Positions 25,297 to 49,497 of a stretch of 64,000 nucleotides of DNA are shown here, piece by piece. The notes under the pieces are model-generated. The model was not told where the DNA came from. It saw only the letters and a program-made list of their open reading frames with translations, and did not search any database. Location: the IMG/VR virus record IMGVR_UViG_3300024348_000008; one strand, 5' to 3'. Source of the stretch: a virus. Made by a program: the position numbers and the translations under genes. Within the stretch, counting starts at the first letter, position 1. Every line of letters starts with the position of its first letter.

Positions 25297-28200
25297 TTGG
25301 CACGCATATCGAACATCAAGTTAAGGCGTTCGGCAACAGCCGGTGCCATACCAACTACTAGTAATCTAGACTTAGGTGAACTAGCGCTTAATACGTACGA
25401 CGGCAAGTTGTACATGAAAAAATCTGTAGGTGGTACAGATAGCATTCAAGAAATTGGTGCATCATCCGCAGGCGCAGCAGATATAGTAAAATATTTTAGA
25501 TATGTTGCAACATCTACTCAAACTTCTTTTTCTGGTTCAGATTCAAACTCAAATACTTTAACTTATGTCGTTTCTGCCATAGATGTACATCTTAATGGTA
25601 TATTATTAGATCCTTCCCAAGATTATACTGCAAATAATGGAAGTACCGTTGTATTAACAAGTGGTGCTACAGTTGGTGATATTTTACAAATCACTGCCTA
25701 TTATAGAACAATTGGTACTGGTGATGATGTAGTACAAGCATTTACAGGTGATGGAAGTGCATATTCGTTTACTCTTAGTACAAATCCAATTGATGAAAAT
25801 CAAACTCTTATATACATCGACGGTGTATATCAAAACAAATCTGCTTATACTGTATCAGGAACTACATTAAGTTTTGGTTCTGGTAATGCTCCTGCATCTG
25901 GTGCAGTTATAGAAGTTGTTACTCATTCATCAAATTTAACTGCAACTAATATTGCAGATCTTACAATTACCGGTGATTTTACTACTAATACAATTTCTGC
26001 GTCTGGCACTATAACCGGTAATCTTACCGGTAATGTAACGGGTAATACTTCAGGCAGTGCAGGAACAGTTACTAGTTTAAGCGGTCATGATACAGATGAT
26101 TTATCAGAAGGTTCAAGTAACCTATATTATACAACTGCACGATTTAATTCTGCATTAGCTTCGGCCAACTCTGGTTCATTATCAGAAGGTTCTAATCTTT
26201 ATTATACCAACGCCCGGGCCCGCGGAGCAATATCCGTAACGGACTCTGGTGGTGATGGATCTCTTTCATACAATAGTTCTACTGGTGTAATAACTTATAC
26301 TGGTCCATCTGCAGCAGAAGTAAGAGCACACTTTAGTGCCGGTTCAAACATAACTATTTCTGGTACTGGTGTTATTGCCGGAAGTGCTGCTTATACAGAT
26401 TCAGATGCTCGTGGAGCCATAAGTGTTACAGATGCTGGTGGAGATGGTTCACTTGCATACAATAGTTCTACTGGTGTTATTACATACACAGGACCGAGTG
26501 CAGCAGAAGTAAGAGCTCACTTAAGTGCCGGCACAGGAATGACATTTAGTGGTGGTGCATTTGCTACAACTATTACACAATACACAACCGCACTTGCAAG
26601 AGCTACTATAAGTGTTACAGATGCTGGTGGAGATGGTTCACTTGCATACAATAGTTCAACCGGTGTAATAACTTATACTGGTCCATCGGCTGCTGAGGTA
26701 CGTGCACATATAAGTGCGGGTACGGGTGTAGCGATTGCTTCAGGTGCTATATCAATTGGCCAAGCAGTTGCCACAACTTCAGATGTAACATTTAATGATG
26801 TACAAGTAGATGGTGATCAGGTTATCACAGGTAATCTAACCGTTAATGGTACTCAAACAAATATAAACACCGCAACCTTATCAGTCGAAGATTTAAACAT
26901 TACGGTTGGTAAATTAGCCACGACGAGTGCGGCTACTAATGGAGCAGGACTAACATTTGGTGCCTGGTCTTCAGGTACTATTCCAACATTAACATGGGAT
27001 CATTCAAACGCTAGGTTTGCAATGAACAAATCATTAGCTGCTAATATAGTAGGTAATCTAACAGGTAATGTAACGGGTAATACTTCAGGTAGTTCTGGAA
27101 GTACAACCGGTAATGCAGCGACTGCTACTGCACTTGCAACCGCAAGAACAATAGGTGGAACTTCTTTTGATGGTACTGCTAATATAGCGGTAGCTTTATC
27201 GGCAACGGCCACTGCACTTGCAACCGCAAGAACAATTGGTGGTGTATCATTTGATGGTACTGCTAATATTAATTTACCTGGTGTAAACGCAAGCGGTACA
27301 CAAGATACTTCTGGTAATGCAGCAACTGCTACAACTGCAGGAACAGTAACTACTGCGGCTCAAACTGCTATAACTTCAGTAGGATCATTAACTGGATTAG
27401 ATGTTAATGGTGCAGTTACTATTAATGATAATCTTTCATTAGATGGTTCAAATAAAGAATTAAGATTTTATGAAGGAGCTAATTATGTTGGATTCGAAGC
27501 TCCTGCACTATCGGCAAATCAAATATGGGTATTACCTACAGCAGATGGTACAGCAGGATATGCACTTAAGACAGATGGTTCTGGAAACTTAAGTTGGGGA
27601 TTAGCCGGTGGAAATGCATTTGAAACAATTGCAGTATCAGGACAATCAAGTCTTGTAGCCGATTCTTCTTCTGATACTCTTACAATTGTTGGTGGAACTG
27701 GTATAACATTAACAACTGCGGCCGGTACAGATACACTTACAATAACAAATACTGCGACTGGTGCAAATGCATTTGGTAACGTTGCAGTATCAGGACAAAC
27801 AACATGTGCAGCAGATAATACAAATGATACATTAACTCTTGTTGCCGGTAACGGTATGTCAATTACTACAAACGGTACTGATACAGTTACAATTGCTGGT
27901 GCGGCTGCAACTAATCCATTAGGAACACAATTACATACTGCAACAAATGCACAGACAGTATTTGCAATAGGTCAAACTCCCGCAAGCGAAGATGCATTAA
28001 TGGTATTTGTTGAAGGTGTATATCAAAATAAAAATTCTTATACAATATCTGGTTCTAACCTAACATTTGATAGTGGAATTCAAACCGGCGAAGAAGTTGT
28101 TATTCATAGTGTTACAAATGGTATTAACGGAACCGGCCAAAATGTTGATATATTTACAGGTAATGGTTCAACTCATTCATATACATTAACCGTAGATCCT

Positions 28201-28767
28201 CAAACAGAAAATAATTGCTTTGTATTCTGGGATGGTGTATATCAAGAAAAAAATCAATATACAGTAAGCGGAACAACACTCGCATTTGGTGGAAGTAATA
28301 TTCCTCCATCAGGAACAAATATTGAAGTTATTACACCAACAGTTACGGCAGTAAATGTACCAACTCAAGGTTCTGTTGTTCCAAATTCAATGTCAACCGG
28401 TGGTCCTTCATGGGATTCTGCCGGTGCTGTCACAATATCTGAATCAGTACAAAATACTGTAACAACAAATATTACTAATACAACTGCGACTACTATTCTT
28501 TCTCTTCCTGCTGCCACATTTAGATCGGCAAAGGTTGAGATTTCTATCTCTGATGCAACTAGTTCAGATTATGAATTTGTTGAAGTTGGTATGGTACATA
28601 ATGGATCTGTAACTTCTTCTACAACGTATGGTCAAGTATATACCGGTTCTGCAAGTAATGGAACTATTACCTCTGGATATTCTGGTAGTAATATGATATT
28701 ACAATTCACTTCAGCTAATACAAACACTCTCGCAATAAAAGCCAAATACTCTGCACTTAAAGTTTAA
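25297..28767 (+). CDS. multidomain tail fibre, candidate branching scaffold (TTG start)
   Basis: AGGAG RBS; IKLRRS..GELALNTYDGKLY N-terminal domain; one VHLNGILL domain, three GVYQ domains, C-terminal FRSAK..VHNG..YG domain; internal repeats. Confidence 0.75.
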   Translation: MARISNIKLRRSATAGAIPTTSNLDLGELALNTYDGKLYMKKSVGGTDSIQEIGASSAGAADIVKYFRYVATSTQTSFSGSDSNSNTLTYVVSAIDVHLNGILLDPSQDYTANNGSTVVLTSGATVGDILQITAYYRTIGTGDDVVQAFTGDGSAYSFTLSTNPIDENQTLIYIDGVYQNKSAYTVSGTTLSFGSGNAPASGAVIEVVTHSSNLTATNIADLTITGDFTTNTISASGTITGNLTGNVTGNTSGSAGTVTSLSGHDTDDLSEGSSNLYYTTARFNSALASANSGSLSEGSNLYYTNARARGAISVTDSGGDGSLSYNSSTGVITYTGPSAAEVRAHFSAGSNITISGTGVIAGSAAYTDSDARGAISVTDAGGDGSLAYNSSTGVITYTGPSAAEVRAHLSAGTGMTFSGGAFATTITQYTTALARATISVTDAGGDGSLAYNSSTGVITYTGPSAAEVRAHISAGTGVAIASGAISIGQAVATTSDVTFNDVQVDGDQVITGNLTVNGTQTNINTATLSVEDLNITVGKLATTSAATNGAGLTFGAWSSGTIPTLTWDHSNARFAMNKSLAANIVGNLTGNVTGNTSGSSGSTTGNAATATALATARTIGGTSFDGTANIAVALSATATALATARTIGGVSFDGTANINLPGVNASGTQDTSGNAATATTAGTVTTAAQTAITSVGSLTGLDVNGAVTINDNLSLDGSNKELRFYEGANYVGFEAPALSANQIWVLPTADGTAGYALKTDGSGNLSWGLAGGNAFETIAVSGQSSLVADSSSDTLTIVGGTGITLTTAAGTDTLTITNTATGANAFGNVAVSGQTTCAADNTNDTLTLVAGNGMSITTNGTDTVTIAGAAATNPLGTQLHTATNAQTVFAIGQTPASEDALMVFVEGVYQNKNSYTISGSNLTFDSGIQTGEEVVIHSVTNGINGTGQNVDIFTGNGSTHSYTLTVDPQTENNCFVFWDGVYQEKNQYTVSGTTLAFGGSNIPPSGTNIEVITPTVTAVNVPTQGSVVPNSMSTGGPSWDSAGAVTISESVQNTVTTNITNTTATTILSLPAATFRSAKVEISISDATSSDYEFVEVGMVHNGSVTSSTTYGQVYTGSASNGTITSGYSGSNMILQFTSANTNTLAIKAKYSALKV
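26419..26657 (+). repeat. 50-bp exact direct repeat (26419..26468 and 26608..26657) within three AISVTDxGGDGSLxYNSSTGVITYTGPSAAEVRAH units
   Basis: ataagtgttacagatgctggtggagatggttcacttgcatacaatagttc occurs twice. Confidence 0.9.
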
Positions 28768-28772
28768 ACTTG

Positions 28773-28780
28773 TATAAATA
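28773..28780 (+). promoter_or_regulatory. late promoter for fibre cassette 1
   Basis: exact TATAAATA, intergenic; gtataaatagaactat is identical to 52508..52523. Confidence 0.8.
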
Positions 28781-28819
28781 GAACTATACAAACATTAAAC
28801 GGATGGAGAGTGAAGTCCT

Positions 28820-31800
28820 GTGGCAGATAAAGATTTTAAAATAAAAAATGGTCTCGAAGTAGGAGATCATATTTCATTACCTGATAGTAAACAGGTACAA
28901 TTTGGCGATGGAAGTGATGGAACAATTTATCATGACGGTTCTCATTTTAGACTTCGTGCCGGCACAGGCACTTTCAACGTACAAGCAAACGACTTTCATA
29001 TTACCGATGCAAGTAATACTACTGCTAGATTTGTAGTTGATCATGACGGCACAACAAGCATACGTTATAATGGAGTTGAAAAATTAGGTACGTCTTCTAC
29101 CGGTGGTGCTCTTACTGGAGTTTGGACAGGTAATTCTGTAACACAAGGAGTAACTAGTAATAATACTGCCTTTGCTACAACAGAATTTGTTACAAGAGCG
29201 GTTAACAATTTAATCGATGGTGCACCGGCTACTCTCAATACACTTAATGAAATTGCTGCAGCAGTTAACGATGATGCCAACTATGTTGGTACAATTAATA
29301 GTGCACTCGCTCTTAAAGCTCCTTTGGCAAGTCCTACATTTACAGGTACGGTAACTTTACCGGCCACAGTTTCAAGTAGTATAACACCTGCCTCAGATTC
29401 AGTCTATAGTTTAGGATCAGATTCTGTAAGATTTGCAGCTGGATATCTCGACGGTTTAAATGTTACAAATCATGTAACAGCCGGGGGTTCTAGCTCAAGC
29501 TCGGTACCCATTTTTAAATTTGAAGGTGATACAAATACTGGTTTAGGTTATATCGGAGCTGATGCGGTTGGTTTAATAGCAGGTGGTTCTCGTAAGTTCT
29601 ATGTAAATGCCACAACAGCCTATTTTCAGAATCTTTCAGGTGGAACTTCTTTTGGCTCTAATGTTACTATTACTGGTACAGTTACAATTCCAAGTACATC
29701 AAGCGGTAACGTCAATAACGAGAGTCATGTACTTATAAGAAATCTAGCAAATGGCAACATTGTTACAGATTCTCTTTTATATAATTGTGCAGAGGACAAA
29801 CTAACTGTTGCAGGGGGTACTTTCATAACTTCTGGCTACATTAGAAGTGGAGCTGCAGATATGAAGTTTGGTACTGCATCAAATGGTGTAATGATTACCC
29901 TTGATGATAGTGCTAATACCGTTGGTATTGGCTCTAATGTTACTATTACTTCAACTAGCCCTACACTTTCCTTAGTCAATACTACAGCTGGAACAGGAAA
30001 GACATTTCAGTTTCGTAATCTTTCTCAAGGTGAATTTGATATATTAGATCCATCTAGTAATTCTGCTATTGGTATAAACAATTTAGGGTGTGTGGCTATT
30101 CGCGGAAGACCTGCTTATAACAATGCTAGTATTGGGATTAATTTATTTTCTGATAGTACTACAGGAGCAACGCTAGGAACTCGAATACAAAACAATGGGT
30201 CTGGTAGATTATTAGATGTTAATAGTTCTGCAGGTACTAAATTTACTATTCTTAACGATGGCAAGGCAAGATTAGGAAATGTGCTATCAACACACGGACA
30301 CGCAAACGCTGATGATCTTATTGTCGGAGACATCTCAGGAGCGTCAACAGGATTAACTATCGTAACTGCTGATGGTGGTACTGGTAATATTCATTTTGGA
30401 GATGGTACAAGTTCAGGAAACGCAAATATTCAAGGACAGTTAATATACGCTCATAATGATAATTCTATGCGCTTTTACACCGCTGTTGCTGAAAGAATAC
30501 GTATTACTTCTGATGGAGATGTTGGTATAGGATGTACTCCGGGTTCAGGAACAAGACTAGAAATAAGAGATGCAGCAAACTCGGCAATCATGGAGCTTTC
30601 AGGAACAGATGGTCGTGGATTAAAGTTATTTACTAAACCAAGCAACTGGCCAACTAATAGTGGTCAAAATGATGCATCGGTTGTTTATAATGCACAAGAT
30701 ACTGAACATTCTATCTATCCCCACCATATATTCCAAACGGGTGGTAATGAAAAATTACGAATTCAAAATAGTGGTGTTGGTATAGGGCTTGTACAGCCTA
30801 ATAATAAATTAGTATTATCAGATAGTTCAGCATCCTATGCTGGTCATGGAGGAGGTACTTATCTAGAAATTGTAAGAGGATCAGGCGCAGATGCCGGAAT
30901 AATCCTTAATAAAGATACTGGCCAGTGGATGATGGGAATTGATAATAGTGATGGTACTAATCCACCATTAAGATTTGAATATAGTGCTGGTGGATCTGCT
31001 CATGCAGGATTAGGTAATGGCACCACTGGATTAACACTTAATTATCAAGGTAAAGTTGGTATAGGTGAAACGGTCCCAATTAGAAAATTAACAGTTACTC
31101 ACCAAGGGAATGTAAGTGCCTTAATACATATGGACACTGACACTGTCGGTGGAACTGCAGCAGTTGAATTTAAAACGGATAGCACAAATAATGATAGAAG
31201 AATAAAAGGTGCTGTTATATTCAAGAGAGACGATCCTGGTACTAGAGGTACAGGTTCTTTAATACTAGCTACTCACGGCTTAAATAATGATACAAATGTT
31301 TCAGCGACAGATGCTAGATTAACAGTACAATCCCATGGAAATATTGATATAGCATATGGCTTACGGAAAGGTGGATGGCCGGGGTATGGTAATCCAACTC
31401 ATAGTGGTGCATATCAAGGAGCTGATGGCGTTGAATTTGGTTATGAGGGAATTTTTAAAACTGACACAATAGCAGGCTCAACCTCTGCGGCCGCAACAAG
31501 CCAATTCTTATCAGTATATTCTTCGGGACATTGGGGAGAATATCCAATATGTAGGCTAACTTATTATGGAACATATTATCAAGCTTCTTATAGACAATAT
31601 CTATTTAGAATGACTAGTTCTACTATTCAACTCGTAGAAAAACACGCATATGGTAGTACAACGTCTTTTGGCCCTGGAGCAGGTAATATAACAGCAAGTA
31701 GTGCAGTATTAGTAGGTAATGCTACTCATTCAGGCCAAAGTGTATATAGATGTGATTTAACGTTTGAGACTGGTGGTGCTTATGCCAGAGGACATGTTGT

Positions 31801-31957
31801 TATAGAAATAAGTTATGGTGGTGGCGGTAAAACCTATTGGTACAGCTCTGGTAAAACCCAAGCTCAAGTAGATAGTCATCAACAAACAAGGGGTGGTGCT
31901 TATCACTTTAAAACGCTCGCCGATAGTGCAATGCGTGAACAATATACAACTTTTTAG
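28820..31957 (+). CDS. tail fibre/receptor-binding protein, cassette 1 (GTG start)
   Basis: MADKDFKIKNGL N-terminus; GAPATLNTLNEIAAAVNDDANY; four VGIG module junctions; aromatic-rich C-terminal domain. Confidence 0.75.
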   Translation: MADKDFKIKNGLEVGDHISLPDSKQVQFGDGSDGTIYHDGSHFRLRAGTGTFNVQANDFHITDASNTTARFVVDHDGTTSIRYNGVEKLGTSSTGGALTGVWTGNSVTQGVTSNNTAFATTEFVTRAVNNLIDGAPATLNTLNEIAAAVNDDANYVGTINSALALKAPLASPTFTGTVTLPATVSSSITPASDSVYSLGSDSVRFAAGYLDGLNVTNHVTAGGSSSSSVPIFKFEGDTNTGLGYIGADAVGLIAGGSRKFYVNATTAYFQNLSGGTSFGSNVTITGTVTIPSTSSGNVNNESHVLIRNLANGNIVTDSLLYNCAEDKLTVAGGTFITSGYIRSGAADMKFGTASNGVMITLDDSANTVGIGSNVTITSTSPTLSLVNTTAGTGKTFQFRNLSQGEFDILDPSSNSAIGINNLGCVAIRGRPAYNNASIGINLFSDSTTGATLGTRIQNNGSGRLLDVNSSAGTKFTILNDGKARLGNVLSTHGHANADDLIVGDISGASTGLTIVTADGGTGNIHFGDGTSSGNANIQGQLIYAHNDNSMRFYTAVAERIRITSDGDVGIGCTPGSGTRLEIRDAANSAIMELSGTDGRGLKLFTKPSNWPTNSGQNDASVVYNAQDTEHSIYPHHIFQTGGNEKLRIQNSGVGIGLVQPNNKLVLSDSSASYAGHGGGTYLEIVRGSGADAGIILNKDTGQWMMGIDNSDGTNPPLRFEYSAGGSAHAGLGNGTTGLTLNYQGKVGIGETVPIRKLTVTHQGNVSALIHMDTDTVGGTAAVEFKTDSTNNDRRIKGAVIFKRDDPGTRGTGSLILATHGLNNDTNVSATDARLTVQSHGNIDIAYGLRKGGWPGYGNPTHSGAYQGADGVEFGYEGIFKTDTIAGSTSAAATSQFLSVYSSGHWGEYPICRLTYYGTYYQASYRQYLFRMTSSTIQLVEKHAYGSTTSFGPGAGNITASSAVLVGNATHSGQSVYRCDLTFETGGAYARGHVVIEISYGGGGKTYWYSSGKTQAQVDSHQQTRGGAYHFKTLADSAMREQYTTF
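29652..29950 (+). repeat. 23-bp direct repeat (29652..29674 and 29928..29950) bracketing an in-frame 276-bp module
   Basis: ttggctctaatgttactattact occurs twice. Confidence 0.85.
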
Positions 31958-31965: not shown

Positions 31966-32214
31966 ATGGCAACACAAATAGCATACGTACATATTCTCTC
32001 AGAAGAAATAATATGTGTAAATATAACAAATGAAGAAGGGGCTACTGGTGAACAGGGTCAACCTGATGGTGCCACATGTACAACAGTTAATCCACATCTA
32101 GAAACAACAGTAACATATGAATTAGTAGATGGAGTTGTAACTGCAGTATCACAAACAGATGTTATGGATAGAATGAATGATCCAGATGATACAACAGTAG
32201 TAGCTCCAACATAA
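31966..32214 (+). CDS. small acidic protein, putative fibre chaperone of cassette 1
   Basis: AGGA RBS; follows a fibre gene like the other cassette partners; ends VAPT. Confidence 0.6.
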   Translation: MATQIAYVHILSEEIICVNITNEEGATGEQGQPDGATCTTVNPHLETTVTYELVDGVVTAVSQTDVMDRMNDPDDTTVVAPT

Positions 32215-32225
32215 TAGGATATAAA
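32200..32225 (+). repeat. 26-bp cassette junction repeat, copy 1 (copy 2 at 35758..35783)
   Basis: gtagctccaacataataggatataaa identical in both. Confidence 0.92.
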
Positions 32226-32230
32226 CAATA

Positions 32231-35200
32231 ATGGCATTAACTAAAATAAAATCAACAGGAATCGATACTCTGGCCGGAGATATATCTCTTGTGGATAGTG
32301 CTAAAATTAATCTTGGTACTGGAAATGATTTACAACTGTATCATTCGGGTTCTAAGAGTTATATTAAAGATGCTGGAACCGGTAATTTAGCTATATTAAC
32401 AAGTACGTTAGAATTAAATAATGCTGCAGATTCACAAAACATGGTTACTGCTAATGAAGGTGGAGGGGTTTATCTTTACCATGCTGGTTCAACTAAACTA
32501 GCCACAACATCTACAGGAGTAACAATAACAGGAACAGCCGTAGCAACAGCATTTACTGGTAACGTAACAGGTAATGCATCAACTGCTACTCAAGCTTATG
32601 TTAGTAATAGCGATGGTAATGGTAATTACAGATTAATATGGACTACTGGCACTACTTCAGGCAATTCACAGTTATTCAATACTGGTGGGGTTACATTAAA
32701 TGCATCTACTAATGCAGTTAGTGCAACAACATTTATTGGAGCTTTAACAGGTAATGTTACAGGTAACACATCAGGTACAGCAGCTACAGTAACAACAGCA
32801 GCACAACCAGCAATTACTTCTGTAGGAACATTATCAAGTTTAGCAGTAGGAAATATTACAACCACCGGATATATAAGAGGTCCTGCATCTTTTGTAATCG
32901 ATCCGGCAACACATGGCGATGATACCGGTACACTTGTTATAGCAGGTAATCTTCAAGTTGATGGCACAACGACCACAATCAACAGCACAACAGTGTCTGT
33001 CGATGATGTTCAAATTATTTTGGCTCAAGGAGCTTCAAATTCTGCGGCAGCGAATGGTGGTGGTATTATACTTGATGGTGCAAATGCAAGTATTTCATAT
33101 ACTCATGCTACAACCAGTTGGGATTTTAATAAACCAATTAAATCAGCAAGCTATATAGAAGCCGTAGGCAATATATCTACAGGAACCAATGCTGGAAGAT
33201 TAAGAGCCGGTGGTTCTAATGAAATGCAACTCTATTTTACAGGGTCACATGGGATATTAAGCAGCAGCACAGGTAATTTCACAGTAGATGTAGCAGGAGA
33301 TATTATTCTTGATGCAGATGGTGGTGATATTAAATTCCAAGATGCGGGAACAGATATTGGATCATTAATTCATAGTGGCAATGACTTACAAATAAAATCT
33401 GCTATATCAAATGGAGATATGGTATTTAGAGGTAATGATGGCGGAACTATAATAACTGCTGGTTACTTTGATATGTCAGATGCAGGAGCATTCCATGTTA
33501 ATACTGACATACGCATCAAAGACAACATGGCTGTACGCTTTGGAGATGACCAAGATTTTAGAATATATACTGACGGTAGTCATACAACTCTACACAATGG
33601 AGTAAGTAACCAAGATATAATGTTTAAAGGTGTTGATGATGGCGCAGCTATCACAGCGCTTACTTTGGATATGTCAAACGCAGGAAAGGCAACCTTTAGT
33701 GGTATTGTAAAATCATTGGTTGGTTTTGAAAGCGGCGATTTATTTATAACCCCTAACGAAATTGACGTAAGTTCTGGAGACCTAACACTAGATGTAGCAG
33801 GAGATATTACTCTTGATGCTGATGGTGGTGATATAAGATTTAAAGATGCAGGTAATACTTTTGGTTATGCAAATGCTAACAATATGGATTTTGTTCTTGG
33901 AGTAGGAACTCCAGATAAAGATATAATCTTTAAAGGAACGGACTCAGACGGTGCTGGTGCAATAACAGCTCTTACTATTGATATGTCAGAAAGAGGAAAA
34001 GCAACCTTTATTAGTGGTATAACAGCAGGAACCAGTACTGCAGGAGATTGGGGTTTAACTCTCAATACTGAAGCTGGCGATAGTATGAAACTGTCTGTCC
34101 AAGATACTGGATCCTCAGGAGCTGCTCATGGAATACTATCTGTTTCAGATGGTGGGTTTACTATCGACGTGGCAGGAGATATTAATCTTGATTCTGCTGG
34201 CGAAATAAGAGTACAAAATCAAACTCTTGTAGATAGTGCAAATACAAATTATATTATGACCTTTCCCAATAATAAAGGTATTGCTATAGGCAGTGCCTAT
34301 ACGTATGGCGAATTAAATGCTAACAATGGCAACCTTTATTTAAGAGCTAATTCATATCCTGCGAATACAGGCTCAACCTCCAAAATATATTTACAAACTG
34401 CCAATGGTTCAGGCGGTCAAGCGGCAGATGTAGTAATTGATAATGGCAACGTTGGTATTGGAACAACTGATGTAGGTGCTCCACTAACTATTCAAACTAA
34501 CGATAGCACTACTGGTGATGTTGTAAATACCATTATGATTAGAAATACGTCAACTGGAACAACTACTACAGGATTTGGTGGTGAAATTAGATTCCAAGCT
34601 GAAAGAAACAATGGTGCTATTCAAAACACAGGTAGAATTGCATCAACCGCAGACGTTAATTCTGGAACTAATATATCTTCTGGTCTTGGTTTTTGGACAA
34701 GTACAGTTGGAGTTATTACTGAGAAAATGCGTATTTCTTATGATGGAAAAGTTACGGTATCTAACAACAAACCAATATGGTCAGGTTCTTATGGTGGTGG
34801 TTTATTCTTAAAAGGTAACAACTCCACCTCTGACAGATACGCGAGAATATGCACTGTTGACTCTACTGGTGCTGCAATTAACAACGGATTAACAGTCAAT
34901 AACGATGGCTCAACTACGATAGATTGCGGTCAAACATATGGATTAAATATTTTAGGAAATGGTAGTGGATTAAGATTTTCTACTGGCTCAAATCAAAGAC
35001 TATATTGGAACACTCATAGAGCTCTCGAAGGAGCAGCAGATGGTAGTGTCTTACAAGTTGGAGAAGGTTTCACAAAGATACTTTCGCAAGGACGAGAAGT
35101 TTGGTATGCAGACGGCGTATATCATTTCAAAATAAGCAAGGCTGTTACTTGTACTGGTAGTTCTGTTACTAGACACACGCTAAATATTAATACTCTTTTA

Positions 35201-35772: not shown

Positions 35773-35783
35773 TAGGATATAAA
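35758..35783 (+). repeat. 26-bp cassette junction repeat, copy 2
   Basis: identical to 32200..32225. Confidence 0.92.
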
Positions 35784-35788
35784 AAGTA

Positions 35789-39632: not shown

Positions 39633-39650
39633 ATAGGATATAAATAGTAA
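39633..39650 (+). promoter_or_regulatory. late promoter (39639..39646) inside an 18-bp junction repeat shared with 43650..43667
   Basis: ataggatataaatagtaa in both; ATG 13 nt from the first T. Confidence 0.85.
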
Positions 39651-39651
39651 T

Positions 39652-42600
39652 ATGGCAACTAAAATAAAATCAACAGGAATCGATACTCTGGCAGGAGATA
39701 TATCTCTTGCGGATAATGCTAAGATTAAACATGGTAGTAGTAATGATCTTCAAATTTATCATGATGGTTCACACAGTTATATTAAAGATGATGGAACAGG
39801 TAATCTTTATTTAGGTGGATCTGCAGCAATATCATTTAATAGTTCAGACTTTGGTGAAACTTACGCTATAATGAATGATGATGGTGCAGTAGTTTTATAC
39901 CATAATAATGTTGCTAAGTTATCTACAGATGCTCAAGGTATTAATGTTACTGGTGGAATAGATGTAGCAGATATTACTGCCACTGGAAATATTAGTTTAA
40001 ACTCTGATAATGGAACATTATATTTTGGAGCTGGCTCAGATATGCGCCTATATCATGATAGTAACAATAGTTATATAGATGATTCTGGTACAGGTGGTTT
40101 AAAAATAAGAGCTAGTGAGTTTCAAGTACTGAAATATGGTACTGCTGAACAAATGTTGAGTGCAACTCAAGATGGTGCAGTCACTCTTTACTACGATAAT
40201 GCTGCTAAGTTGGCCACGACAAATACTGGTGTAAATATTACTGGTACTATAGTAGGTGCTACGGCTACTGCAAGTGGTGGTACTAGTACTACTGCACTTG
40301 CTTCTACAGCATTCGTACAACAAGAATTAACCACGCTAATAGGTGGTGCACCAAGCACCCTCAACGACCTGAATGAATTAGCGGCCGCTATCAACGATGA
40401 TGCAAATTATAATAGTACTCTTACTACGGCATTGGCTACTAAACTACCTCTAGCTGGTGGTGAAATGAGTGGCACTTTAAATATTACTCAAGCATCTACT
40501 AATGATACTATTAAATTAACTAGAGGTACAACTAGTCATAATAACATGATTAAGTTCCGAAGTGCTGGAGCAGATAAGTGGATTCTAGGACAAAGAAACG
40601 ATAGCACAGAGCATTTTAGACTTTATTCTTATGGTACAAGTACTGATGTGCTATCTATTTTAACAGACGGTAAAGTTGGTATAGGCTATAACAATCCACA
40701 AAATAATATTCATGTTCTAGGAAACAGCTCTATTCCTAATGTAGGTTTAACATTACAAACACATGATACTGCTAATGCTATTGCCAATATTAATCTATTG
40801 TCAAGGCTTGCAGATAATGTCAATAAGACAGTTGAGCTTAGAGCGTATAGAGGAAATCTAATAATTCTTGGTGACACAGGATATGGCAAGGTTGGTATAG
40901 GAACTACGACTCCTGATGCACAATTTGAAGTAAGAGGAGATGCATATAAAGCAAGATTTACAAGGTCAGGAAGTGCTGGAACAAACGTAGAGTTCTATTA
41001 TGGAGCAACTCAAGCAGGTGGAATACAAGTTCAATCTACGGGTCTTGGTATAAGTGGTGCTGCTCGCGAAAATGATTTATTTATTAAGAGTGATGGCAAA
41101 GTTGGTATAGGAGAAACTTCACCATTAGGTAAGCTTCATGTAAAAAGTAGCGATTCTGGCGCGACAGCTGATGCAAGCGCTGATGAATTGGTTGTTGAAA
41201 ATAATTCAAATACTGGAATAAGTATTTTATCTGGTACAAGTAGTACTGGTTCAATTTATTTTGGAGATAGTGGTACAAACTGGGACGGATATATAGCATA
41301 TACTCATGGATCAGGCGCTACTCATAGAAAATTTGTTATTGGAACTGCTGCTGGTGGTAACTCTCTATCTATAGATGCCATTGGTCATGTTGGTATTGCA
41401 AAACAAACACCTATTGCTTGGGGTTCTGGTTATAAATCATTACAAATTGGGGCTAGAGGTTATGTTGGAGCACATAGCGGTAGTGATCTTTATGTAGGTC
41501 AAAATGCTTATCATAATAGTGGATGGAAATACGAAGCTTCAGTAGCGGCTTCTCTAACTCAACATTCAGGCGGTCAAATAACTCATTATGTAACACCTGC
41601 TGGAACAGCTGGTAATGCAATAACATGGAATATCGGCATGCATATAAAACCAACTGGCGAAGTTGGTATAGGAACTACGGCTCCAGCAGTAAACTTGCAT
41701 ATTAACAAAGGTTCTTCAACATTCCAACCCGCTGCCGGAGTAATAAAAAATTATTTTGCACTAAATACAGACTATGATTCAACTGGGGTTCAAGGCATAT
41801 ATTTTTCAAATCTAGACGGCAATTGGGTAGATGGGACTTCAGGTGCTGATTCCCAATTTGGTATGTTATTTGGATATCAGAATGCAACACGAGGTGGCCT
41901 AATTTACGATCATCGTGGCTCTGAAATGATGTCGCTTTGGTCAAGTTACGGTCCTCTTACCTTTATGACACCAGATGCTGCAGATGGTGATGGTGTTCCT
42001 ACAGATAGTAATATAAAAAGTAGATTAACAATTGATATAGGTGGCAACGTTGGTATTAATGGCGAGACAGATCCGCAAGCACCTTTGGATTGTGGAGTGA
42101 CTAGTCAAAACCAACAGGTAGTATTACTTAGGCAAAACGGTAATTCACGAACAGGCTTTAGTATTTCAAATGATTGGGGCGTAAGAGCCTTTGGTCCAGC
42201 CGATGCTAGTTCAACCGGCTCATTGTTTGGGGTCGGTGAAATGACCAGCGGTACAAATTATTTAGGTGATTTGTTTACTATTCGATATGATGGACGAGTT
42301 GGTATCGGAACTACGAGTCCTGGCTACCTGTTACATGCACAAAACTCAACCACCACCGGCCAAAGTGTAATAGCAACATCTGGTAATGGTGCATTTATAA
42401 TGGCTATTGGAAGCCAAAATTCCCCTGGCGTAGCACAAGAGGCTTTCATTGGTACTTTAAGTGATTCACGCTTTAAAATCAAAGTTAACAATGTAGTCAA
42501 GGGGTCTTGGACTGATGGCGGTTTAGCTATAGGAACTCACTCGAGTGCAAGCGCCCCATTAGATGTAGTTTGTAATAATAATGTTTGGGCTGGTGAATTT

Positions 42601-43275
42601 ACACAATCTAATACTTCAAATGGTGATGGTGTAATTGTCACAGTAGGAAGCACAGCATCAGCAGACTATGCTTTATCAATTAGATCTGATGCGGGAAATA
42701 CTTCAGGCTTAGCTGTTAAAGCAGATGGCTATGTTGGTATTGGTACTTTTATTCCCAACTCTCCATTACACGTCTACGGGCGTTTCAACCATAACTCCGC
42801 TGGAGGAACTACTCATCCTGGCTCTGCATCTTCAACCGAGCACAACATAACGACGTCTATACTTGGCGGAAAGCTGCGTTTTGGATTAGCAGTGGCTTTT
42901 CCAAATGGTACAAGTAATCTAGCAATTAGAATATATATAGACACAACTAGTTTATGGCTGGCCGGAGAAGTTACGATTGGATCCACATACAGTAATGCAG
43001 CAGCAACGGGACTTAATCGTTATAGTTTTAGCCACAACCAAAACACCACCAACAACTATGGAAATGTTTTAACTCAGACTGAATATTTTGGCCAAGTCGC
43101 TAGTCATTTTACATTTGATAGCCATGGCTATGATTCCACTGAGGGTGCTCATTATTTTGAATTTAGACATGCAAACAGTTACGGTAATACAATGTATCTT
43201 CAGTTTGAAGGCATGGGCAGTTCTCCCGCTCATGCTAACCTTGGAACTTGGTACTATAAACACATAACCTACTAG
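39652..43275 (+). CDS. tail fibre/receptor-binding protein, cassette 4
   Basis: MATKIKSTGIDTLAGDISL start; GAPSTLNDLNELAAAINDDANY; eight VGI junctions. Confidence 0.75.
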   Translation: MATKIKSTGIDTLAGDISLADNAKIKHGSSNDLQIYHDGSHSYIKDDGTGNLYLGGSAAISFNSSDFGETYAIMNDDGAVVLYHNNVAKLSTDAQGINVTGGIDVADITATGNISLNSDNGTLYFGAGSDMRLYHDSNNSYIDDSGTGGLKIRASEFQVLKYGTAEQMLSATQDGAVTLYYDNAAKLATTNTGVNITGTIVGATATASGGTSTTALASTAFVQQELTTLIGGAPSTLNDLNELAAAINDDANYNSTLTTALATKLPLAGGEMSGTLNITQASTNDTIKLTRGTTSHNNMIKFRSAGADKWILGQRNDSTEHFRLYSYGTSTDVLSILTDGKVGIGYNNPQNNIHVLGNSSIPNVGLTLQTHDTANAIANINLLSRLADNVNKTVELRAYRGNLIILGDTGYGKVGIGTTTPDAQFEVRGDAYKARFTRSGSAGTNVEFYYGATQAGGIQVQSTGLGISGAARENDLFIKSDGKVGIGETSPLGKLHVKSSDSGATADASADELVVENNSNTGISILSGTSSTGSIYFGDSGTNWDGYIAYTHGSGATHRKFVIGTAAGGNSLSIDAIGHVGIAKQTPIAWGSGYKSLQIGARGYVGAHSGSDLYVGQNAYHNSGWKYEASVAASLTQHSGGQITHYVTPAGTAGNAITWNIGMHIKPTGEVGIGTTAPAVNLHINKGSSTFQPAAGVIKNYFALNTDYDSTGVQGIYFSNLDGNWVDGTSGADSQFGMLFGYQNATRGGLIYDHRGSEMMSLWSSYGPLTFMTPDAADGDGVPTDSNIKSRLTIDIGGNVGINGETDPQAPLDCGVTSQNQQVVLLRQNGNSRTGFSISNDWGVRAFGPADASSTGSLFGVGEMTSGTNYLGDLFTIRYDGRVGIGTTSPGYLLHAQNSTTTGQSVIATSGNGAFIMAIGSQNSPGVAQEAFIGTLSDSRFKIKVNNVVKGSWTDGGLAIGTHSSASAPLDVVCNNNVWAGEFTQSNTSNGDGVIVTVGSTASADYALSIRSDAGNTSGLAVKADGYVGIGTFIPNSPLHVYGRFNHNSAGGTTHPGSASSTEHNITTSILGGKLRFGLAVAFPNGTSNLAIRIYIDTTSLWLAGEVTIGSTYSNAAATGLNRYSFSHNQNTTNNYGNVLTQTEYFGQVASHFTFDSHGYDSTEGAHYFEFRHANSYGNTMYLQFEGMGSSPAHANLGTWYYKHITY

Positions 43276-43284: not shown

Positions 43285-43623
43285 ATGTACAAATTTACTT
43301 ACAAAAACGAAGACTATTATTTTAATCCAGAGAATCCTGAGCCTAGTATGAATCTTGAGACTGGTGAGATGGAATATGGAGATAAACTTAAAAATGTATT
43401 AGGTATGACAAATGCAGAAGCACTACAATGCCATGCGGAAGGATTACTTAACGAACTCAGGGGAGAACGCGATCTAAGGTTGGCTAAATGTGATTGGGCT
43501 GGTTCATATGATGTTTCAGATTCTATTAAAGCTGTTTATGCACCGTATAGACAAGCTCTTCGTGATATTACAGATACATACACTAATTTAGATGACGTTG
43601 TATGGCCGGCATTAGAAGAATAA
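43285..43623 (+). CDS. phage tail fibre assembly chaperone
   Basis: LRGERDLRLAKCDW..YRQALRDITDTY..DDVVWP. Confidence 0.82.
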   Translation: MYKFTYKNEDYYFNPENPEPSMNLETGEMEYGDKLKNVLGMTNAEALQCHAEGLLNELRGERDLRLAKCDWAGSYDVSDSIKAVYAPYRQALRDITDTYTNLDDVVWPALEE

Positions 43624-43649
43624 ATATTAATATGGTATTTGATAACACA

Positions 43650-43667
43650 ATAGGATATAAATAGTAA
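43650..43667 (+). promoter_or_regulatory. late promoter (43656..43663) inside the junction repeat
   Basis: ataggatataaatagtaa; ATG at 43669. Confidence 0.85.
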
Positions 43668-43668
43668 C

Positions 43669-46600
43669 ATGGCAAAATCAAAAGCAAGATATTTAGCAGA
43701 AATATTAGGATCAGACGGTAAAGTTCAAAAATCTAAATCAAAAGGTTTTACAGAACTTGCTGTAAGTGATTTGCCTGATAATATTACAAATGCTAAATTA
43801 CAAAATTCTAGTATAACTGTTGCTGGAGATTTAGTATCTCTTGGAGGCAGTGTTGCAATTGATACTTCTGAAATTACAGAACATACTAATGCTAAATTTC
43901 ATACTACTGCAAGAGCAAGATCTGCAATAAGTGCGACTGGTTCTTTATCATATAACTCCTCAACAGGTGTTATGTCATTTACAATGCCTGCACAAAATAC
44001 TTCTAATATTACAGAAGGTTCTAACTTATATTTTACAAATGCAAGAGCAGATGCAAGAATAACTGCTGCAGATACAGGAGATTTATCTGAAGGATCTAAT
44101 TTATACCATACAACTGCAAGAGCAAGAGCGGCAATAAGTGAAAACTCTACGCAATTAGCATATAATAGTAGCACAGGTGTATTAACATTTACACAAGGTG
44201 ATACTGACACTGTATCAGAAGGTTCTAACTTATATTATACTAATGCAAGAGCAGATGCAAGGGCAAATGCTCGTATTGCTGCATCAGATACAGGTGATTT
44301 ATCTGAAGGTTCTAATTTATATTATACTAATGCAAGAGCGGATGCAAGAATAGCAGCAGCAGATACCGGTGATTTATCAGAAGGTTCTAACTTATATTAT
44401 ACTAATGCAAGAGCAGATGCAAGAATAACAAATGCAGGTAGTGGAAATTGGAATACAGCATATGGATGGGGAAATCATGCCTCAGGCGGGTACGCGCCCC
44501 TGGCCGGGCCTGCCCTCACCGGTGCACCTACCGCCCCTACGGCCGCGGCAAATACAAATACAACACAGATTGCAACCACTGCTTATGTACAAACAGAACT
44601 TACCGATTTAATTGACGGAGCTCCAGGAACATTAGACTCATTAAATGAATTAGCCGCTGCGATCAACGACGATGCAAACTATAATTCAACTCTTACAACG
44701 GCATTAGGAACTAAAGTAGCAAAAACTTCTAATCAAGCATTAGGTACTGCGGCTAATGTTATGACAATTAGTGGTAATACAATTACACTTGCAAGAGGTG
44801 ATAGCACTACAGATACTGTTACGGTACCAGACACTAACACAACTTATACTGCAGGGACTAATATGTCTCTTAGCGGTACAGAATTTTCATCTACAAATAC
44901 AACATATTCTGTAGGCGATGGTGGTCTTACACAAAAGAATTTCACAACTACACTTAAATCTAAACTAGATGGTATAGCCGCTGGTGCCACTAATACAGCT
45001 GCTCCTCATTATACTTCTGCTATTGCAGTTGGAGATGGTGGTCTTACACAAAAGAATTTCACAACTGCTCTTAATACTAAACTAACAGGCATAGCCGCTA
45101 GTGCAAATAACTATACGCTACCTTTTACCGATAACTCAGCTAACTGGAATACTGCTTACGGTTGGGGTAACCATGCGAGTGCTGGATATGTAACTACTGA
45201 TAATAATACTACATATACTGCCGGAACAAATATGTCTCTTAGCGGTACAGAATTTTCATCTACAAATACAACATATTCTGTTGGAGATGGTGGATTAACA
45301 ACTAAAAACTTTACAGCAGCACTTAAAACTAAATTAGACGGCATTGAAACAAGTGCAACAGCAGATCAAACCGCAGTTCAGATATTAACTGCTATAAAAA
45401 CTGTAGATGGTGCAAGTTCTGGTTTAGATGCTGACTTATTAGATGGAATACATGGTGCTTCATTACTTAGATCAGATGTACATGATACTGGCGTAGGACT
45501 AGCTATAAACGGCGGAACTCTAAACCAAGCTCATGATTCAACCTTATATGTAACTGCAGGTAATAATAGTGACTGGGGTATTACAATTGGTGCTGCTTCA
45601 GGTAAAACTGAATACGGTATGCAAATTCAGATGCCCTCCTCATTCAATTACGCACTTAGAATTTTAAAGAACGGATCAGAGCACTTTAATGTTAATTCTA
45701 CTGGCGCAACAATTGGTGGAAACTATATTTGGCACGCTGGCAACGATGGTGCAAGTTCTGGTTTAGATGCTGACTTATTAGATGGACAACATGGTTCTTA
45801 TTACGCGGCAGCTAGTAGCTTAAGTAGTTACTTACCACTGTCGGGAGGTACTCTTTCTAGTTCTTTACATTTAGGAAATGATGTAGGATTAACATCTACT
45901 ACTACAGGTGAAACTTTACGTGTTTTATTCCCTGGTGGTGGCGCAAGAAAAAATAGCGGGTCAAGTGAAACTGGTGCAATTAAAATAACATTACCGGTTG
46001 GTATGACGAATAGTATGTTATCTGTTAAGGTTAGTGTCTATCAATATGATTCGCATGAATCTTTTGAAGTACATTTTGGTGGTTATAACTATCCTACTGG
46101 AAATACTTGGGCACACAATCCCTTTGGTTATATTACTGGATCTCCTAAAGCAAATCATGGACCTTATGCAATAAGATTTGGATATGATAGTAATAGTAAA
46201 GCTTGCGTTTATATTGGAGAAACTAATACTACTTGGTCTTATCCAACAATAAGTGTTACTGAAGCTGAAATAGGTTATTCTGGTTATACTAATACTTCAT
46301 GGGATAATGGTTGGGATGTATCAATTGTTACAAGTTTCGAAAATGTAACTGCTACAATAGCGGCCACCGAAACAAATATTGGTATTAGTTTAGCTAATGG
46401 AGTAACCCATCAGCAAACTGCTCAATTAAAATTAAAAGCTCATACAAATGGTTGGGCAGGTGGTTTGGCTCTGATTTCATCAGATGGATCTGATACTTTT
46501 CAAATTCATCCAGATGATAATGGTTATATGTATGTCGATAAAACATGGAATTTCTCGGCCGTACCTCATGTAGGTGTTGGAAACCCCGTTTGGTATACAG

Positions 46601-49497
46601 GCAATGACGGTTCTGGTAGTGGGTTGGATGCAGATTTGCTTGATGGAAATCATGCCTCTGCATTCTTAATAGCTTCTCCAACTAGTATAACAATTGATGG
46701 AACCCAAGATCAGACAATAAGTACTACCACCCATAGTTTAGAAATTAAAAATGCAGGCGCTACTAGTAGCGGTGGTTTAGTACTACAAGGATCAGACGGT
46801 ACACATGGTCTTCAGCTGTATTGGGACGGTAGTGGTGCTAACTATGGATTCTTAGATGGTGCATGGGCCAGTTGGGATATTCAAAAAGTTAGAAATGGTA
46901 CTTTTAAAGTTGACGAAGGTGCAGGTTTAAAACGAGTTCTTAACGAAGCTAACTGGTCAAGTTATATATCAAATAATAATCAGCTAACAAATGGTGCTGG
47001 TTATATTACCGCATCTGGTACTGCGAATCAGTCACACATGGTTTCAGGTTCTGCCTTTGGAACAACTAGTTCACCTAGTAGTGTTTTAGAATATCAACAA
47101 GCAAGCGGTCAGACCGATACAAGATTGGCTCCTTCTGGCGACTGGCATAACAGTATTCGAATGGGTCATGGTAACCCATATAATTACTACTCCAACACTA
47201 TTGCGGCAAGAATGACGGGCACAGGTTATGGAGATTTATACACTCAGTGCATTTATAACAATTCCGCACAAGGTTGGAGAAAGATTTGGAGTGCAGGCAA
47301 CGATGGTTCAGGTTCTGGATTAGACGCAGATTTACTTGATGGTGTTAATAGCGCTTCATTTCTAAGATCGGATACTGCAGATACATTTACTGGTACTCTC
47401 ACAATGGGTACACAATTTGCGTTAGTTCCCAATAATTATGGGCTTGGCCTGTTTGGTCTTTATGCATCTACTCGGTATCAACATGTTTGGTCAATGGGAA
47501 CAGCATATAAAACTTCTACTGATGGCACGTCATACGGTAATATATATGGTCTAACTTACACTCACCCAAACATTGGCACTGGTACTAATCAATCTATCTC
47601 AGGTTTAAGTCATCAGCTTCAGGGAAGAGAAAATGGTACATTGACCTGGGCTTTGGGCACAGGGATATGGACAGCTAATACTATTACTTCTGGGAACCAA
47701 GGTACTTTGTGGGGTTCAAGCAACGACGGCTCAGGCTCTGGTTTAGATGCTGATTTACTTGATGGACAACAAGGTTCTTACTATTCAGCTGCACACTCTC
47801 ATCCATATTTAGGTACATCAGCTAAAGCTGCCGACTCTGATTTATTTGATGGACATAATTCTGACAAATTTGTATTCGGTACTAGCGGATACGGTACTAC
47901 TAGTATGGGGTTTGCATCTATAACAAACCAAAAGTCAGGGTTTTACGATGTGCATAACAGCGGAACTCCTACATCAACATGGTACTCGCTTCTCAACATG
48001 GCTCATTATGGAACCAATCACGGGCATCAAATTGCTGGCTCGTTTTATAGCGCAGGAGATATCTATAATCGTAATAATAATAACACTAGTTTAAGTTCTT
48101 GGGCAAAGATATGGAACACTGCTAATGACGGTTCAGGTTCTGGATTAGACGCTGATTTGTTGGATGGCGTGCAAGGTAGTGGGTATGCTCGGTTAGGTGG
48201 CAGTAATCATGCAAGAACTTATCCAAATAGATGGTTTGCAACAGCAGATAGCGATAATATCATTGATTTTTATGATCAAAACCATGCAAAAGCCCATCTA
48301 GGAAATAGTAGTAAATATACAACCTCTAGGCCTGTTATTACATCAGATCAAAACTATTGGGTCGGCTCAATGGGATGGGGGAACGTTGATCTAAATACTA
48401 TCCTGAATTATGGATCAGGATTCTGGGATTCATGGAGTAGTCCCTCAAATAGACCTTCTACATATACTAGCCACTGGAATGGCTTTAACGCCATGCACTA
48501 TACAGCCAGTAGCACATATCACCACGGTATGCAGATGGCAATGGGTGCAGGTAATCCCGCACACACATATCTAAGGGGTTGGTGGTCTAGTAGTTCAGGT
48601 TATGCGTGGCAGAAAATATGGACAGACGGAAATGACGGCTCAGGTTCTGGATTAGATGCTGATTTATTAGATGGAAATCAAGCATCAGCATTTATGTTGG
48701 CTGGTGCTGCACCTAATGCTCATAATCACACCGGTGTTTATTTACCTATAGGTAGTAAGGCTGCTGACTCTGATCTGTTAGATGGTCTAAATTCGGCGTC
48801 TTCCGGGGCCGATATAGTTTTAAGAACCGACTCCAATTCTTATTTACAAATTAATAACTGGACACAGGTTGGTGGAGCCGGTATGTATTCATCCAGTGTT
48901 AATGGTTTCCACTGGTATGCTAATAATAGCTTTACTTATGGTTGTGGAAGATTAAACGGTGCAAGAAATGGTTATTCTGGTATTGTTCTAGATACCGGTG
49001 GGGATGTTGTTCTCGGCATGTATGATTCAGGTGGTAATGGTGGAGATTATAATACAAGTAGTGGATGGCATTCTTATTACCATAGAGGCAATGATTGTTT
49101 AGGAATTGCTGAATCAACCACATCAAGCTCATATGGATGTTATGTTACTGGTGCAATATATGCAACCGGTGATGTTGTAGGTTCTTCTGATGTAAGGCTG
49201 AAAAAGAATATAAATACTATTGAGAATGGTTTAGCTAAAGTTGAGAAACTAAGAGGTGTTACATACGAATGGAAAGATGCAAAAGAATCTGGTTCGGATG
49301 GAAATAATATAACCCCAGAAAGAATGGGTGTTATTGCTCAGGAAATTATAGATATAGTACCTGAAGTTGTAACACACGATAAAGAAAACGATCGATATGG
49401 TGTTTCTTATGGTCATTTAACAGGTGTACTTATCGAAGCTATAAAAGAACTAAGTGATAAAGTAAAAGAATTAGAGAAAAAATTAGAGGAAAAATAA
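43669..49497 (+). CDS. long distal tail fibre with SGLDADLLDG repeats and C-terminal peptidase S74 chaperone, cassette 5
   Basis: MAKSKARYLA start; five EGSNLY repeats; seven DGxxSGLDADLLDG; SSDVRLKKNI..GVIAQE..VSYGHL..IEAIKEL. Confidence 0.85.
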   Translation: MAKSKARYLAEILGSDGKVQKSKSKGFTELAVSDLPDNITNAKLQNSSITVAGDLVSLGGSVAIDTSEITEHTNAKFHTTARARSAISATGSLSYNSSTGVMSFTMPAQNTSNITEGSNLYFTNARADARITAADTGDLSEGSNLYHTTARARAAISENSTQLAYNSSTGVLTFTQGDTDTVSEGSNLYYTNARADARANARIAASDTGDLSEGSNLYYTNARADARIAAADTGDLSEGSNLYYTNARADARITNAGSGNWNTAYGWGNHASGGYAPLAGPALTGAPTAPTAAANTNTTQIATTAYVQTELTDLIDGAPGTLDSLNELAAAINDDANYNSTLTTALGTKVAKTSNQALGTAANVMTISGNTITLARGDSTTDTVTVPDTNTTYTAGTNMSLSGTEFSSTNTTYSVGDGGLTQKNFTTTLKSKLDGIAAGATNTAAPHYTSAIAVGDGGLTQKNFTTALNTKLTGIAASANNYTLPFTDNSANWNTAYGWGNHASAGYVTTDNNTTYTAGTNMSLSGTEFSSTNTTYSVGDGGLTTKNFTAALKTKLDGIETSATADQTAVQILTAIKTVDGASSGLDADLLDGIHGASLLRSDVHDTGVGLAINGGTLNQAHDSTLYVTAGNNSDWGITIGAASGKTEYGMQIQMPSSFNYALRILKNGSEHFNVNSTGATIGGNYIWHAGNDGASSGLDADLLDGQHGSYYAAASSLSSYLPLSGGTLSSSLHLGNDVGLTSTTTGETLRVLFPGGGARKNSGSSETGAIKITLPVGMTNSMLSVKVSVYQYDSHESFEVHFGGYNYPTGNTWAHNPFGYITGSPKANHGPYAIRFGYDSNSKACVYIGETNTTWSYPTISVTEAEIGYSGYTNTSWDNGWDVSIVTSFENVTATIAATETNIGISLANGVTHQQTAQLKLKAHTNGWAGGLALISSDGSDTFQIHPDDNGYMYVDKTWNFSAVPHVGVGNPVWYTGNDGSGSGLDADLLDGNHASAFLIASPTSITIDGTQDQTISTTTHSLEIKNAGATSSGGLVLQGSDGTHGLQLYWDGSGANYGFLDGAWASWDIQKVRNGTFKVDEGAGLKRVLNEANWSSYISNNNQLTNGAGYITASGTANQSHMVSGSAFGTTSSPSSVLEYQQASGQTDTRLAPSGDWHNSIRMGHGNPYNYYSNTIAARMTGTGYGDLYTQCIYNNSAQGWRKIWSAGNDGSGSGLDADLLDGVNSASFLRSDTADTFTGTLTMGTQFALVPNNYGLGLFGLYASTRYQHVWSMGTAYKTSTDGTSYGNIYGLTYTHPNIGTGTNQSISGLSHQLQGRENGTLTWALGTGIWTANTITSGNQGTLWGSSNDGSGSGLDADLLDGQQGSYYSAAHSHPYLGTSAKAADSDLFDGHNSDKFVFGTSGYGTTSMGFASITNQKSGFYDVHNSGTPTSTWYSLLNMAHYGTNHGHQIAGSFYSAGDIYNRNNNNTSLSSWAKIWNTANDGSGSGLDADLLDGVQGSGYARLGGSNHARTYPNRWFATADSDNIIDFYDQNHAKAHLGNSSKYTTSRPVITSDQNYWVGSMGWGNVDLNTILNYGSGFWDSWSSPSNRPSTYTSHWNGFNAMHYTASSTYHHGMQMAMGAGNPAHTYLRGWWSSSSGYAWQKIWTDGNDGSGSGLDADLLDGNQASAFMLAGAAPNAHNHTGVYLPIGSKAADSDLLDGLNSASSGADIVLRTDSNSYLQINNWTQVGGAGMYSSSVNGFHWYANNSFTYGCGRLNGARNGYSGIVLDTGGDVVLGMYDSGGNGGDYNTSSGWHSYYHRGNDCLGIAESTTSSSYGCYVTGAIYATGDVVGSSDVRLKKNINTIENGLAKVEKLRGVTYEWKDAKESGSDGNNITPERMGVIAQEIIDIVPEVVTHDKENDRYGVSYGHLTGVLIEAIKELSDKVKELEKKLEEK
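44860..45281 (+). repeat. 53-bp exact direct repeat (44860..44912 and 45229..45281)
   Basis: aatatgtctcttagcggtacagaattttcatctacaaatacaacatattctgt occurs twice. Confidence 0.9.
45406..48675 (+). repeat. seven dispersed DGxxSGLDADLLDG repeats; the first two are identical over 42 bp (45406..45447, 45745..45786)
   Basis: read in both the translation and the DNA. Confidence 0.9.

Follow-up and report, generated by a model that had tools for sequence, protein, structure and literature searches.

In phage T4, trimers of the XD2 and XD3 domains of gp10 hold gp11 and gp12, and their counterparts in CBA120 hold TSP2 and TSP1, as demonstrated by ultracentrifugation (PMC8825819). The long tail fibres of T4 are joined coaxially to gp9's C-terminal domain (PMC3004832). 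In RaK2, gp528 carries five XD domains, for which the authors predicted a role in tail-fibre branching on the basis of models, and three further fibres of this phage harbor two, one and one XD domains (PMC10253068). Branched hubs with XD domains are already known, so far from enterobacterial phages with tailspikes. Open-ocean T4-like phages possess large, fast-changing islands of fibre genes, and the question addressed here is by what means such a large number of fibres is mounted on one baseplate. A 64,000 nucleotide (nt) stretch of the virus record IMGVR_UViG_3300024348_000008, referred to as the window, was analyzed computationally together with related loci (L numbers) and records (G numbers). 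We focus on a protein of 1156 amino acids (aa) with a TTG start, encoded at 25297-28767 and termed the hub in the following, and on the five large fibre genes behind it (F1 to F5), which start with short peptides called tags; all large open reading frames (ORFs) of the window lie on the + strand. From this analysis, we give an even chance to the hub being a platform that would mount several of the five variable fibres via short conserved N-terminal tags.

The translation confirmed the domains that had been assigned to the hub in an initial annotation of the window. The N-terminal 55 residues (aa 1-55, 25297..25461), IKLRRSATAG..LDLGELALNTYDGKLYMK, are the most conserved part of the protein, with 62-78% identity to homologues and invariant columns in alignment A1, and are likely to be the attachment end. 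They are followed by a first pair of small domains (25471..25944), namely the LNGILL-type domain d1 (aa 59-140), in which the stretch YVAT..QTSFSG..IDVHLNGILL..DYTA spans aa 65-135, and the GVYQ-type domain d2 (aa 139-216). A shaft with conserved columns in alignment A1 (aa 217-869, 25945..27903) separates this pair from a second one (27904..28353), which consists of the GVYQ-type domains d3 (aa 870-945) and d4 (aa 944-1019). The shaft is built of repeat modules, among them SEGSNLYYTNARA, GSLxYNSSTGVITYTGPSAAEVRAH and NYVGFEAP, and contains PHROG tail-fibre matches at aa 511-709. The protein ends in an RSAK..VHNG domain with a beta-sandwich fold resembling the gp9 socket (aa 1047-1156, 28435..28764), in which FRSAK..VHNG..YG covers aa 1058-1156. 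The window contains three copies, and no more, of the 12-mer GGTGTATATCAA reported for the GVYQ-type domains (25822, 28015 and 28234), whereas 0.04 occurrences are expected and none of 100 shuffles reached three.

To characterize the folds of these domains, aa 1-218 and aa 861-1156 of the hub were modeled using homologue alignments (predicted local distance difference test, pLDDT, of 76 and 79, respectively). In the predicted models, the small domains adopt a beta-jellyroll fold that superposes on XD2/XD3 of TSP4 or gp10, and they follow each other in the tandem arrangement of XD2-XD3; they are therefore called XD domains below. The predicted end domain has the eight-stranded beta-sandwich of the gp9 C-terminal domain, its top fold match being the T4 fibre socket. 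Hub domains also aligned, less well, to F-ENA spore fibres and to the anchors that T7-type fibres carry at their N-terminus, and no coiled coil was present in either model. By sequence, the Pfam family DUF4183 / F-ENA matched three stretches of the hub corresponding to d2-d4 (E 5.7e-10, 39.3 bits, gathering cut-off 25.1), and d1 was not detected by Pfam. Separate profiles identified d1 as a distinct subtype and d2-d4 as mutually alike; d1 is a divergent member of the GVYQ-domain fold, with a weak sequence relation to it (hhalign P 2e-5). A hidden Markov model (HMM) built from the hub's own four small domains recognized 5, 2 and 1 of them in three Muenster fibres that neighbour one another, in agreement with the published RaK2 counts (PMC10253068), and in tblastn the XD pair matched Alcyoneusvirus fibres with 32% identity across 117 aa (E 2e-5). 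When the entire hub was compared with PDB sequences by phmmer, only chance matches to antibodies were obtained.

The architecture of the hub is conserved among its relatives. All 14 distinct full-length homologues contained exactly four XD copies, always as two tandem pairs (d1+G and G+G, G denoting the GVYQ type), plus the end domain, and the family showed a mean column identity of 48% over 12 members, with most of its length conserved including the GVYQ motifs and the end domain. The division into one, three and one domains made in the initial annotation is thus kept in the 14 homologues, although the LNGILL domain belongs to the same fold as the GVYQ domains. The position of the first pair shifts along the protein, from aa 60-215 in some homologues to aa 585-1006 in others, its location ranging between aa 60 and aa 860. 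Upstream of the hub, the order VrlC-like protein, 72 aa protein, S74 fibre, 110 aa protein, 82 aa protein and U3 was syntenic in every related locus. The genes behind the hub, in contrast, vary in their count and length and in the domains that they encode, which include S74, C1q, Laminin_G and Peptidase_G2. A conserved hub in front of variable genes is the pattern of a structural adaptor and not that of a receptor-binding tip, and the 25297 protein would act as a conserved adaptor fibre rather than as a variable receptor-binding fibre. In G001, the nearest of the records compared, the hub gene is absent.

Two further arrangements were observed among the relatives. Locus L020 of the 98 kb record G004 encodes a minimal hub of 494 aa (9989-11473), in which the N-terminal motif is retained along with a single G-G XD pair and a gp9-like end. 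In the methylophage Melnitz (L006, 23099-30404), an XD-type domain is located N-terminally on at least four short separate fibres (MPYLG.., MAYIG.., MPFIG..), some of which are followed by chaperone-like genes, and the 517 aa hub homologue of this phage has no XD domain; one module is accordingly used in two ways within one phage group.

Compared with the described systems, the hub combines known modules in a different order. CBA120 TSP4 has a single N-terminal AD-XD1-XD2-XD3 array followed by its own enzymatic spike, whereas the hub has two XD pairs along a long repeat shaft and a gp9-like end, with no XD1 or AD seen; long fibres bearing short tags would be its partners, in place of the spikes with D1-D2 heads of the TSP4 complex. 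With gp528 of RaK2 and phiK64-1 (Alcyoneusvirus) it shares the presence of several XD domains on one fibre protein, ahead of a tailspike-type C-terminal domain, as well as sequence similarity to the Muenster homologue; gp528, however, belongs to Klebsiella jumbo phages, carries all its XD domains near the N-terminus and has a depolymerase body. In T4, gp10 and gp9 are separate short baseplate proteins bound to gp7, while here both module types reside on one 1156 aa fibre, which is encoded after a VrlC-like gene and probably forms a chain with further fibre segments. Anchors of T7 gp17 and other podophage fibres are found at the extreme N-terminus and plug the fibre into the tail, in contrast to the internal, paired domains of the hub with their variable positions along the shaft. 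No description of such a hub in T4-like marine phages was found in the literature searched, and the passages of PMC7029224 consulted on the fibre island of pelagimyophages and cyanomyophages call it variable, with no mention of XD domains, of N-terminal tags or of a hub protein that is conserved. New is an XD hub in a marine T4-like phage, with a long repeat shaft, two pairs plus a terminal gp9-like domain, and short-tagged long fibres as candidate partners. It would extend the branched-hub principle to marine phages with long fibres, and a conserved fibre that joins gp10-type docking modules to a gp9-type socket is a concrete, testable answer to how the fibres are mounted.

The N-terminal motif of the hub is found in further fibre proteins. 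It also starts U3 (502 aa, 23694-25202, MANLTRIKIL..GELA), the gene directly upstream of the hub, and is internal in the HTVC011P fibre (aa 406-450). U3 ends in DGGTY and the 82 aa protein before it (23444-23692) in NSGTY, and the next gene of each starts with ..IK(I/L)..GELA; the order of these genes is the same in every related locus. Because '..FGEVY' and 'RISATAPT..D..W..' are contiguous within one chain in the HTVC011P fibre (L007, 31470-31560), this suggests that these genes of the window are linked through their ends to give a single, segmented fibre, in which the IKLRRS..GELA motif would probably join the hub to the end of the preceding protein. A plain fibre with a podophage-like anchor was also considered for the hub and dropped, as the stretch matching aa 10-135 lies in the interior of the podophage fibres (aa 406-519 in HTVC011P).

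The five fibres behind the hub (1045-1942 aa) have the starts initially reported, and an anchor domain was not recognised in any of them by Pfam or PHROGs, nor did they match the XD HMM. F1 (1045 aa, GTG start, MADKDFKIKNGL; 28820..31957) begins with tag 1, MADKDFKIKNGLEVG, and has PHROG tail-fibre matches. Downstream of it, a small ORF of 82 aa (31966-32214) precedes F2 (1109 aa, MALTKIKSTGID, MALTKIK; 32231-35560) and F3 (1168 aa, MALTKVVRHLSSTPSIVDGGNATAITIDSSEN, MALTKVV; 35789-39295). F4 (1207 aa, MATKIKSTGID; 39652-43275) is flanked by two genes for tail-fibre assembly chaperones (39274-39624, Pfam Phage_tail_APC E 4.5e-11; 43285-43623, E 2.5e-11). The last fibre, F5 (1942 aa, 43669-49497), begins with tag 2, MAKSKARYLAEILGSDGKV (MAKSKARYLA), and ends in an S74 intramolecular chaperone (Peptidase_S74 E 1.7e-16, aa 1840-1901). 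A homologous module of some 95 aa, YHDGS, lies just behind the tags of F1-F4 (blastp E 1e-5 to 7e-32); it spans aa 11-107 in F1 and is present twice in F4. The first 129 aa of F2 and F4 are 49% identical, whereas F3 departs from both after residue 6. The YHDGS module was rejected as a docking plug, since it is internal in hub homologues and in an S74 fibre and occurs in fibres of all three tag types. It is a mobile shaft unit, and the P-SCSP1u fibre carries it at aa 873-971.

Tag 1 follows the consensus MA[DN]K[ND]F.[VI]KNGL.VG. In 13 loci, F6, K9, N10 and G11 are invariant while synonymous codons vary, indicating selection on the peptide. Wherever a locus extends beyond a full-length hub, the next gene carries tag 1, the exceptions being L009 and L016; the tag-1 gene of L019 encodes a protein of 71 aa. 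F..x[DN]GLx[AV]GG is found in both tag 1 and T4 gp34 at the same distance from the start, a likeness that is not significant (profile 0.5 bits, E 0.04, single sequence). By analogy with T4, F1 might be seated with tag 1 on the gp9-like end of the hub. The GTG start of F1 is abutted by a hairpin (28800..28819) with a 5 bp stem and an invariant loop, GGAGAGTGAA, that holds the Shine-Dalgarno sequence GGAG. The hairpin is found at the same place in 13 loci (the window, L001, L003, L008, L010, L015, L017-L019, L022, L023, L025 and L031), with four of the five stem pairs maintained through two-sided changes, and it is probably an element that controls translation or presents the Shine-Dalgarno sequence.

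Tag 2, M..SKAR.L..L..S.G with variants, was present in 16 of about 93 loci. A d1-type domain is present in 15 of these, while the remaining locus is the opposite end of a genome that has it; among the 63 loci without d1, no tag-2 start was found. The association was also seen in podophages: all four pelagipodophages with an internal d1-type domain in the main fibre encode a second fibre-like protein starting with M[TS][KRN]AR[DE]. Jormungand and HTVC028P, the genes of which were read individually, each encode a KAR-type protein. The segment after d1 in HTVC011P resembles aa 27-65 of F5 by eye, which, if real, hints at the two parts being positioned next to each other. A tblastn search with the first 70 aa of F5 gave no match in isolate phages. 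It is rather unlikely that marine myophages and podophages share a vocabulary of plugs and sockets in which LNGILL-type XD domains would take M..KAR.L, GVYQ-type XD domains MA.TK and gp9-like ends MA.K.F..KNGL, each tag being borne by otherwise unrelated fibres; if true, a fibre cassette could pass from one phage to another and still be fitted at its proper site on the virion. Apart from the starts seen in the window, a fourth type, MANRYPLIVDSS, was observed in L011, L019, L020 and L091.

A box with the sequence TAGGATATAAA.A.TAA precedes F2-F5 (32215-32231, with the sequence TAGGATATAAACAATAA, 35773-35789, 39634-39650 and 43651-43667) and is found nowhere else in the window. The T4 late-promoter word TATAAATA is part of this box, the end of which lies 5 nt upstream of the ATG; similar boxes are located ahead of tag-2 and MA.TK fibres in relatives. 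As there is no Shine-Dalgarno sequence between box and ATG, the messages of F2-F5 may be nearly leaderless. Some 40 nt of DNA ahead of the gene and the first five codons are the same in F2 and F3, so that their common MALTK is a copy at the DNA level. Since nearly every structural gene here starts with 'MA', these two residues are uninformative.

Several readings of how these starts relate to the domains of the hub were compared. In the initial annotation, a strict code with one socket per fibre had been proposed, in which the LNGILL domain would capture KARxLA, the three GVYQ domains the three MA(L)TK starts and the end domain MADKDF, the counts co-varying among relatives. We regard such a code as very unlikely. 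It agrees with the one d1-type, three G-type and one end domain of every homologue and with the one, three and one tags of the window, as well as with the co-occurrence of tag 2 and d1 and the position of tag 1 next to the end domain. On the condition that the two ends of its contig join up, G002 matches the window in its tag counts (one tag-1, three MA.TK and one tag-2 fibre). However, the tag-2 fibre of G002 carries an extra XD domain, resulting in at least five XD domains in total and at least four of the G type against three MA.TK fibres, and G003 with L008 encodes six XD domains and at least five MA.TK-type fibres, besides additional fibre-like genes that start differently, for instance with MADRIPLIVDSS. 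In 84 loci, the XD domain count and the count of MA.TK starts were weakly correlated (rho 0.35; partial 0.30 after accounting for locus length, p 0.005; both uncorrected for kinship and truncation), with no one-to-one match, 20 loci, for instance, having two XD domains and no such start. All three classes of starts recur in relatives, including the F3-type start in L018, L022 and Jormungand, but MA(L)TK is too short and too mixed for a single plug: it splits into at least four unrelated continuations, similar starts are found on gp6 and tail tube proteins, and in F2 and F3 it was copied as DNA. The scaffold originally proposed gains real though indirect support from the docking-type folds, the conservation of the hub while fibres vary, the adjacency of tag 1 and the co-occurrence of KAR and LNGILL; the one-to-one code is not supported.

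Alternatively, the 25297 protein could be one more fibre, its XD-like and end domains forming shaft knobs and a distal tip that possibly binds a conserved host component, and F1-F5 would then attach to the baseplate singly. This we consider possible but on the improbable side, and with similar reserve the shared starts of the fibres may be put down to cassette junctions and expression signals. These folds are indeed known from tailspikes, where they are located distally, and from N-terminal anchors, PHROGs label the protein as a tail fibre, and XD pairs are also internal to downstream fibres of relatives (L008, L009, L016, L019 and L092). The common promoter-like box of F2-F5, the DNA shared by F2 and F3 through codon 5 and the 'MA' starts found genome-wide likewise agree with this reading. 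A plain fibre is harder to reconcile with the full architecture, including the end domain, being conserved where other fibres are replaced, which would be unusual for a receptor-binding tip. Nor does it account well for tag 1 being kept at the amino acid level while codons vary, for tag 2 tracking the d1-type domain in both myophages and podophages, or for the T4 fibre socket as the top fold match of the end domain. Several observations weigh against the hub as a mounting platform, the reading we prefer. L009 and L016 have the end domain and no tag-1 gene within the next 10 kb, and in L020 the fibre encoded after the minimal hub (933 aa, 11711 onward) has a different start, MANRYPLIVDSS. Between distant homologues the end domain is 27-32% identical whereas tag 1 is nearly invariant, a poor fit with a co-evolving pair; comparison of the domain divergence in L009 and L016, which represent a single lineage, gave no clear signal. 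Moreover, the co-occurrences of tags and domains are drawn from few independent lineages and from truncated contigs.

If the hub is indeed a platform, its XD pairs would form trimers on which trimeric fibres or spikes could dock, as in T4 gp10, CBA120 TSP4 and RaK2 gp528, and trimer formation, each contact and the placement of every fibre are predictions by analogy with these proteins. New fibre cassettes, each with a late-promoter box and a tag, might then be swapped in without any change of the hub. Should the tags be address labels, host-range evolution would become readable from sequence, as the fibres displayed and their positions would follow from tags and sockets.

The window covers the structural region from baseplate to neck in a T4-like marine myophage, which is close to pelagimyophages and to the methylophage Melnitz. 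Homologues of T4 gp48, gp53, gp5, gp25, gp6 and gp8 and a gp7-like protein were detected by PHROGs and Pfam, whereas neither named any gene of the window as a homologue of the T4 attachment proteins gp9-gp12. The closest isolates at the DNA level are the Melnitz methylophages, with 72% identity along a short stretch of gp6. In pelagimyophages and cyanomyophages, the passages of PMC7029224 drawn on here describe the host-recognition cluster as a variable island from VrlC to the neck genes. A fibre island with varying gene content is likewise found here between the gene for a DUF4815 (VrlC-like) protein (1879 aa, 11549-17188) and a gp13-like gene (54436-55410), which is accompanied by gp14- and gp15-like neck and tail genes after 54.4 kb. 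The 25297 protein thus sits in the host-recognition cluster of a pelagimyophage-like phage, which, to the extent covered by those passages, resembles the published cluster in its hypervariable fibre island and its tropism-determinant-like and other binding domains. The same cluster includes a fibre with an S74 chaperone (1894 aa, 17412-23096), the fibre-like U3 and an LtfC-like protein (110 aa, 23111-23443; Pfam LtfC, PHROG 3304). Between the last fibre and the neck genes, a stretch at 50480-52472 contains a 428 aa ORF without PHROG matches and a 2OG-Fe(II) oxygenase-like gene, and is more AT-rich (GC 0.30).

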